A DNA stretch of 13,814 bases, taken from IMG/VR virus record IMGVR_UViG_2695420871_000010; one strand, given 5' to 3'. Both the position numbers and the translations under genes were made by a program. The stretch is from a virus (Duplodnaviria; Heunggongvirae; Uroviricota; Caudoviricetes). Below the pieces are notes generated by a model that saw only the letters and a program-made list of their open reading frames with translations, was not told the DNA's origin and did not search any database. Shown here piece by piece: positions 10,135-10,400 of the stretch. Numbering within the stretch: the stretch's first letter is position 1; every line of letters begins with the position of its first letter.

Positions 10135-10400
10135 AAGTGCAAAAATGCACTTAGCAACTGGTGGCGAGTTGCAGATCTGCAACTCGACTATGAAACTACG
10201 GAAACTACCCGTAGTTTGGGTAGTAAGAGTAACACCCAGATTTTGGGGCTTACTCGCGATACCCAAATAAAGGGTATCGGTGGAAGAAATATCGTTTCTC
10301 ATATGTGAGTACCGAGGGCGGAATTCCGCCTTCGGTTACTTATTGTGCGCATGCACAGGGAGGGGCGGGTCAAATCTCTGTACCCTGACGTCTTCCGGAC
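10135..10400 (+). other. Dense cluster of palindromes/hairpins in a non-coding segment (candidate structured RNA or protein-binding DNA site)
   Basis: aagtgca/tgcactt (10135-10152); perfect 22-bp palindrome cgagttgcagatctgcaactcg (10165-10186); overlapping alternative stems actacgg/ccgtagt and actaccc/gggtagt (10195-10224); gataccc/gggtatc (10258-10278); gagggcggaattccgccttc (10314-10333); tgtgc/gcaca (10344-10357). Confidence 0.35.

Follow-up and report, generated by a model that had tools for sequence, protein, structure and literature searches.

Comparative analysis of a Gram-negative PICI right end in which a hairpin cassette precedes a phage-type cos site

Borrowing a cos site from a helper phage is the accepted packaging route of cos-type satellites. 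Gram-negative cos PICIs, of which EcCICFT073 is the closest described relative of the island studied here, carry a copy of the helper cos near their right end and depend on the helper terminase (Fillol-Salom 2018, 2019; Feiss 2022). EcCICFT073 has two cos sites, both lambda-type and flanking rpp (cosN at L096:2559 on the + strand and L096:3298 on the - strand). Because both cosN sites lie upstream of the gene for a 93-aa protein, the non-coding tail of about 550 nt that separates this gene from attR is not the published cos1 or cos2. We observed in that tail (L096:3656-4210; CFT073 chromosome 1388655-1389209) three units of an IHF-consensus site and a dyad, and further hairpins. An IHF site near cos is also found in phage lambda, where it forms the I1 element of cosB (R3-I1-R2-R1; PMC9026076). 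The cohesive end of phage SfI has been determined experimentally and is the 10-nt sequence TGCCCGCCCC (PMC3636060). Our search of the PICI literature found no description of the hairpin region reported below. In E. coli, the RIP or RIB elements (BIME-1) combine an IHF site with flanking REP palindromes at the 3′ ends of operons, and their function is unsettled.

We analysed a stretch of 13,814 nt (IMG/VR record IMGVR_UViG_2695420871_000010), referred to here as the window. It is E. coli-like, with a cspD-like gene at the left and clpS (10757-11077) and clpA (11093-13384) in the rightward flank, and sequence common to E. coli genomes restarts at about position 10651. The satellite between these flanks (Table 1) carries the att core ATGATAGTTATyTATCAT at either end, and all of its genes are rightward. 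It has an integrase located at one end, an AlpA-type regulator, a primase with an adjacent ori, unidirectional genes, an att site, a size in the range expected of PICIs (about 10-15 kb) and no tail or lysis genes. The ori-like iteron region lies between the primase-helicase and SSB genes; AT-rich iterons (ACAGTT and GTTCACC repeats) at 6158-6271, downstream of the primase gene, are probably the island ori, and the same iterons are behind spurious plant-miRNA hits in Rfam. A 10,790-bp circular record deposited as an E. coli plasmid (NZ_CP148328.1; L097, 1-10790) has a single att core at its start and joins window position 10672 to position 550, and the chromosome record of the same strain ends at clpS. 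Judged by this junction, the record represents a near-identical island in its excised circular (attP) form. The assignment of the island as a Gram-negative PICI of the EcCICFT073-like type is well supported by its gene content, by a layout that parallels EcCICFT073 and by the excised circle. It shares with EcCICFT073 the presence of two cos sites, the 93-aa gene and about 550 nt of non-coding sequence between that gene and attR, and the right ends of the two islands are collinear. No rpp-like or TerS-like gene and no SfV-type helper were seen within the window. Downstream of clpA we also noted two type I-F CRISPR repeats (CRISPR-DR4, 50 bits each) at 13599-13686, starting at 13599 and 13659, which is the known position of the E. 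coli clpA-infA array.

Table 1. Features of the satellite and of its right end, in window coordinates.
Feature	Position	Strand	Description
Whole satellite, Gram-negative PICI	550-10672	+	about 10.1 kb, between the att cores; inserted between cspD and yljB/clpS
att cores	550-567 and 10655-10672		two copies
P4-type integrase	746-1984
Small AlpA- and repressor-like genes	within the island
D5-type primase-helicase	4253-6058
SSB gene	6615-7037
ClpP-protease/major-capsid fusion	7697-9577
cos1	9601-9803	+	Stx-lambdoid type; cosQ-like GGGTCCT at 9608-9614; cosN-like GGGCGGGTCGGC at about 9639-9650, by analogy with lambda only
93-aa gene (phrog_1561)	9836-10117	+	final gene of the island; constant neighbour to the left of the hairpins
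Candidate IHF-consensus site	10115-10127	-	WATCAANNNNTTR on the - strand, TAACTGGTTGATA on the + strand; overlaps the TAA stop codon of the 93-aa gene
H1	10135-10152		AAGTGCA-aaaa-TGCACTT; variable dyad of the IHF and dyad unit
Chi-like octamer	10157-10164	+	ACTGGTGG; from the alignment of relatives (A3) and the Chi census
H2	10165-10186		perfect 22-bp palindrome CGAGTTGCAGA/TCTGCAACTCG, central GATC
H3 and alternative stem	10192-10224		from a 9-nt direct duplication, 10192-10199 and 10201-10208
H4	10227-10255		outer stem tolerates mismatches
H5	10257-10279		closing pair changes from C-G to T-A via T.G
H6	10285-10299
H7	10311-10336		G+C-rich stem around GAATTC, tail TACTTATTGT; lies with H8 in 10307-10357
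H8	10344-10357
cos2	10358-10444	+	SfV/SfI/SfII/ST64B/phiP27 type; G-box GGGGCGGG at 10362-10369; cohesive-end homolog TGCCAGCCCC at 10401-10410
attP P-arm region	10445-10654		perfect Chi at 10451-10458; TTGTTCG repeats at 10527-10556; GGTGTAGTTAAT doublets at 10557-10584

Arm-type repeats of the integrase occur on both sides of the att core, as GGTGTAGTyAAT doublets or triplets together with TTGTTCG repeats (570-725 and 10527-10584). Those at 570-725, upstream of int, match the right-hand attP arm, and the doublets themselves lie at 685-725 and 10557-10584. Arm-type repeats at a constant spacing of about 80-130 bp from the core were taken as the mark of an attP arm, and the spacing of the arm repeats in the window parallels the ‘doubled motif’ geometry of HE-PICI attP (PMC10111431). 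The hairpin block was also considered as an attP arm and rejected, since it lies 300-520 bp from the core and is common to islands at other integration sites. The 93-aa protein that precedes the block belongs to a narrow family (39 clusters at 50% identity) and is modelled by AlphaFold as a low-confidence three-helix fold; searches with it gave no Pfam match, no PDB match and no informative remote homologs.

By their phage matches, the two cos sites of the island are of unrelated types. The first, cos1, shares 85-88% identity with Stx-converting phages and VT1-Sakai and also matches the right terminus of mEp460; in the Stx2d phage LC567830 the match falls between an Rz-like endopeptidase gene and terS. 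The cos1 family is the helper type that matches the island's protease-capsid fusion. A DUF1441 (Nu1-like) gene follows cos1 in three relatives (L009, L094 and L097), and the window has no such gene. The second site, cos2, aligns in the same orientation with the cos between the HNH gene and terS of SfV, SfI, SfII, ST64B and phiP27 (82-95% identity over about 87 bp). At this end of the island, phage BLAST matched only window 10358-10444, in 21 phage records (identity 82-96% in 20). They coincide with the genome termini in SfV, SfI, SfII, SfIV and ST64B and, in phiP27, with the annotated cos-site; the SfV record starts, and the SfI record ends, inside the match. Phage homology begins after the HNH gene and ends just before the terS ribosome-binding site (alignment A1). 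Window 10401-10410 reproduces nine of the ten bases of the SfI cohesive end, with a single change from C to A, and the relative L081 carries the phage version. The G-box and nine of the ten cohesive-end bases are shared with SfV, SfI, SfII, SfIV, ST64B and phiP27; the setting differs, and is HNH gene and terS in the SfV-group phages and hairpin cassette and attP arm in the island. Because the matches sit at phage termini and at the phiP27 cos-site, the homology stops at the limits of the HNH-terS interval, and the cohesive end is retained at nine of ten bases, we firmly assign 10358-10444, from sequence comparison, as a copied helper-phage cos site and packaging site. In this respect cos2 is ordinary. 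Where the island departs from EcCICFT073, with its pair of lambda-type sites upstream of the 93-aa gene, is in having one Stx-lambdoid site and one of the SfV/HK97 type (10-nt end, HNH-dependent terminase), the latter downstream of the hairpins. Two unrelated helper families could therefore be usable by the island.

The first-pass annotation of this DNA had treated 10135-10400 as one structured non-coding segment near the right end of an island, and had suggested a structured regulatory RNA, a packaging or recognition site, or clustered protein-binding palindromes as functions. The general setting, an island whose right end is non-coding and holds spurious ORFs, was correctly guessed, and every hairpin and palindrome it listed is present, the perfect 22-bp palindrome among them. 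The segment itself does not hold together as a unit. By its matches it is a composite of a satellite-specific cassette (10118-10357) and a phage-type cos that begins at 10358 and runs to 10444, with only the first 43 bp of cos2 inside the annotated segment and about half beyond it. Eight hairpins or palindromes (H1 to H8) occupy 10135-10357. On the + strand the 303-nt stretch folds at -129.9 kcal/mol, compared with -86.1 ± 5.1 kcal/mol in dinucleotide shuffles (z = -8.5; none of 100 shuffles as good), and on the - strand the corresponding z-score is -7.6. Three ORFs overlap the hairpin stretch, at 10081-10302 (-), 10280-10438 (+) and 10370-10615 (-), which adds one on the + strand to the two minus-strand ORFs that had been recorded as the only ones and dismissed as spurious. 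None of the three gave a credible Pfam match, and a 1-nt indel in L081 breaks the frame of the 73-aa ORF; on these grounds a coding role was rejected for all of them.

H2 is identical in 20 of 21 aligned homologs; the exception, L092, alters a symmetric central pair (GATC to AATT) and has two further unpaired changes. At H3 both of the stems that had been proposed as mutually exclusive are present, AAACTACGG/CCGTAGTTT at 10193-10217 and ACTACCC/GGGTAGT at 10203-10224, but their overlap is the product of a 9-nt direct duplication (GAAACTACG and GAAACTACC) that is missing in L062 and L092, where one hairpin remains. The inner four pairs of H7 are invariant and its outer pairs decay. Taking a G+C-rich stem followed by a T-run as the mark of an intrinsic terminator, H7 was the only terminator-like site on the + strand within 9500-10800, in a scan whose total count was no higher than that of shuffles; the other seven hairpins have no U-tract and are not canonical intrinsic terminators. 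In most relatives a perfect Chi (GCTGGTGG) stands between H1 and H2, where the window carries ACTGGTGG. We also observed in the relatives (alignment A3, columns 42-62, corresponding to window 10157-10173) the sequence CTGGTGGGTGAGTTGCA, which fits the sigma-54 -24/-12 consensus at 9 of 12 specified bases and is correctly spaced; the copy in the window is shorter by 1 nt.

The cassette is widespread among satellites. Phage BLAST gave no match for window 10118-10357, nor for the EcCICFT073 array, and a phage origin of the hairpin block was rejected on this basis; an origin as a plasmid oriT or ssi was likewise rejected, as the only plasmid matches were satellites or the excised island. The block and cos2 occur together in 349 E. 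coli genomes, and other genomes have the block without cos2. In every context examined the block is downstream of a homolog of the 93-aa gene. The islands that carry it include cf-PICI-like islands with their own portal, HNH, P27-family TerS and TerL (L007 and L091), islands that combine a TerS-like gene with capsid and decoration genes of lambda type (L008 and L092), and helper-embedded islands inside a prophage terminase gene (L009 and L093). The same block thus follows the 93-aa gene across differing island types, which indicates that the cassette is not tied to a particular type of cos, integrase or capsid. Its position varies: in some islands it lies 300-440 nt from the gene behind other cassettes, is partly duplicated, or is represented by the sub-block 10163-10283 alone, and remnants of the 3′ end of the 93-aa gene (GGCGGTAACTGGTTGATATT) recur between stacked cassettes. 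In all 13 comparisons made, the core block (10163-10283) was better conserved than the coding gene next to it, a degree of conservation that could mirror recent horizontal spread instead of selection. In L092, a helper-embedded island, an abortive-infection (Abi) family gene (L092:5255-6016) has been inserted after the hairpin block and before attR, which suggests that the zone after the block is a hotspot for cargo or defence genes.

The left edge of the cassette follows a regular plan. An IHF site is expected to match WATCAANNNNTTR and to have an A/T-rich 5′ flank. In 25.2 kb from 48 unique right ends the strict consensus occurred 53 times in the orientation of the window and 5 times reversed, where 0.38 would be expected, the matches being related copies and not independent events. 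The positions at which they vary are exactly the four Ns of the consensus. Each copy is followed by a short dyad at a fixed register, its centre about 29 nt from TAAC; the dyads have 22 distinct 5′ arms, and at least five perfect pairs are formed in 73% of units compared with 8% of chimeric controls. The units are sometimes in tandem with a 54-bp period (L020 and EcCICFT073). An IHF consensus beside short palindromes, just after the last gene of a transcription unit, is a likeness to RIP/RIB (BIME-1) elements. Those elements are dispersed over the chromosome and REP-like, whereas the units described here have variable dyads and are confined to satellites, and no sequence relationship between the two was noticed. 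Many dispersed copies were not found: hairpin units occupy a median of one place per genome, always in a satellite context. By its match to the consensus 10115-10127 is a candidate IHF site, and with the nearly invariant 22-bp palindrome it makes the earlier proposal of clustered protein-binding palindromes a possible one. Chi sites are also concentrated here, at 2.1 per kb in PICI right ends where satellite gene regions have 0.72 per kb and random sequence would have 0.03 per kb (about 70-fold less). The island itself has nine Chi in 10.1 kb, six on the + and three on the - strand. Across PICI right ends, in sequences that are not independent, Chi orientation tends to track the position and orientation of cos.

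On balance these data lean towards a joint reading in which the right end consists of a copy of a helper cos and, before it, a satellite-specific cassette that acts as a boundary or insulator at the level of DNA. This role of the hairpins, which we infer, is favoured at the DNA level by the oriented excess of IHF consensus, the fixed register of dyads with 22 different arms, the density of Chi, the conservation of the core, and the symmetric mismatches and loopless palindromes described below. A boundary is suggested by H7 being the sole terminator-like site, by the Abi cargo after the block in L092 and by the gene 3′ remnants between cassettes. On induction of an SfV/HK97-type helper, a complex of TerS, TerL and HNH would cleave replicated island DNA at TGCCAGCCCC to give cohesive ends of 10 nt, and would package it. 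In the cassette, an IHF consensus with its variable dyad is followed by the Chi-like octamer and seven more palindromes; IHF bending, the dyads and the terminator-like H7 would terminate the late operon. This would keep the late operon apart from host genes while the island is integrated, and from cos2, attP and int once it is an excised circle. The cassette would also serve as a recombination-prone junction at which right-end modules (cos types and cargo genes) are swapped. Our ranking of roles for the hairpins places DNA boundary or insulator and module junction first, then accessory packaging or end protection, then an RNA 3′ UTR, and last non-functional scars. More tentatively, the IHF and dyad units, the highly conserved palindrome cassette and the clustered Chi may together make up a class of cis-acting DNA element that has not been described before and is shared by enterobacterial PICIs. 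Such an element would act on satellite DNA in its linear or excised form, for instance to protect or organise the end that is injected first, or as an exchange point through which one island gathers cos sites for unrelated helper families, here of the Stx-lambdoid and SfV/HK97 types.

The hairpin block might instead belong to the packaging site as a satellite-specific accessory that extends cos2 on its last-packaged, first-injected side, with the IHF bend and dyads aiding terminase assembly or terminal cos cleavage, and Chi and end structure shielding the entering end from RecBCD. We consider this unlikely, even though block and cos2 are contiguous and in the same order at different integration sites (in the window, L048, L081, L091, L094 and L097), the cf-PICI-like L091 combines its own packaging genes with the block and a cos2-like right end, and an IHF site is used in lambda cosB (PMC9026076). 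The enrichment of Chi in right ends and its tendency to follow cos also speak for such a role. The phages, however, have no hairpins beside this cos and have the HNH gene there instead. The block occurs without cos2 in L007, L009, L073 and L093, as a sub-block in L008-type islands, and EcCICFT073 keeps its IHF and dyad units though both of its cosN are on the far side of the 93-aa gene. Unlike I1 in lambda, the candidate IHF site lies across cos2 on the cosQ side, at a distance of about 280 bp, has a dyad as its partner in place of R sequences, and is present wherever the island cos lies. In the window the octamer at 10157 resembles Chi without being a perfect copy, the perfect Chi at 10451 has the wrong orientation for the end beside it, and the packaging polarity of the SfV-type cos is an assumption. 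The earlier suggestion of a packaging or recognition site was right only for the right edge of the segment and for 45 bp past its end; it does not extend to the hairpins, which are not phage-derived and are found also in satellites with cos elsewhere (EcCICFT073 and L007-L009). Given the contiguity of block and cos2 in several islands, H7 and H8 may nevertheless have a cos-accessory role.

We regard as doubtful, and more so than a packaging role, the possibility that the hairpins work as RNA, either as a structured 3′ UTR of the late operon (for protection from 3′ exonucleases or for termination) or as the source of a 3′-UTR-derived regulatory RNA. The region is directly 3′ of the last ORF in constant orientation, H7 resembles an intrinsic terminator, and in the window's family the + strand folds 10-16 kcal/mol better than the - strand. 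Across 13 homologs 94.5% of cells pair. The covariance check proposed with the earlier RNA suggestion found changes on both sides of a stem only in H1 (three pairs) and the closing pair of H5, and H2 and H3 are nearly invariant, so that they are beyond test by covariation. Among the compensatory changes of H1 are several + strand G.T pairs, G.U-compatible intermediates that would suit an RNA hairpin at an mRNA 3′ end as well. Against an RNA, an Rfam covariance scan of the whole window gave no match in 10100-10450 even at E ≤ 1, and no promoter-like site was found. Wobble-type mismatches have no strand asymmetry, either overall (20 G.T and 22 A.C in 52 unique stems from all right-end families) or within the block (11 pairs with some G.T and 13 with some A.C), and a conserved A.C is seen on the + strand in some hairpins of related right ends. 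In several elements the palindrome is perfect across its centre and leaves no loop, a symmetry for which an RNA hairpin has no need. Structure exceeds that of mononucleotide shuffles in most related right ends (mean z about -4.6), and among the 38 folded across families the + strand is the better in just 21. A structured cis-regulatory RNA is therefore poorly matched by what was found, namely limited covariation, no strand bias of G.U and alternative pairing that is not conserved. The lack of an Rfam match, the symmetric mismatches, the loopless palindromes and the mixed strand folding are together evidence against a structure or switch in one strand of RNA or ssDNA. Strand-specific selection on RNA or ssDNA was rejected because G.T and A.C are symmetric, and a switch by alternative stems because it depends on the duplication that L062 and L092 lack. 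In the reading that we favour, the cassette is neither an RNA switch nor part of the phage-derived cos.

It is improbable that the block has no dedicated function and is a mosaic of leftover terminators and recombination scars hitch-hiking between the 93-aa gene and attP, as its stacked architecture with repeated gene 3′-end remnants, the decay of the outer stems of H4 and H7 and the cargo genes inserted in the same zone might suggest, since compensatory changes keep dyad symmetry at a fixed register through 22 arm variants, the non-coding core exceeds its neighbouring gene in conservation in all 13 comparisons, the fold z-score of -8.5 is extreme and the IHF consensus is kept exactly at its informative positions.

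Two features of the island are less usual than a borrowed cos site. If the two unrelated terminase types for which the island carries sites both work, a wider range of phages would be able to mobilise the island and its cargo. A large family of E. coli satellites that includes EcCICFT073 shares a non-coding tail of oriented IHF-site and dyad units, conserved palindromes and many Chi, and a defined cis element in this tail would matter for the engineering of PICI-based delivery vectors and for understanding satellite survival on entry and module swapping.
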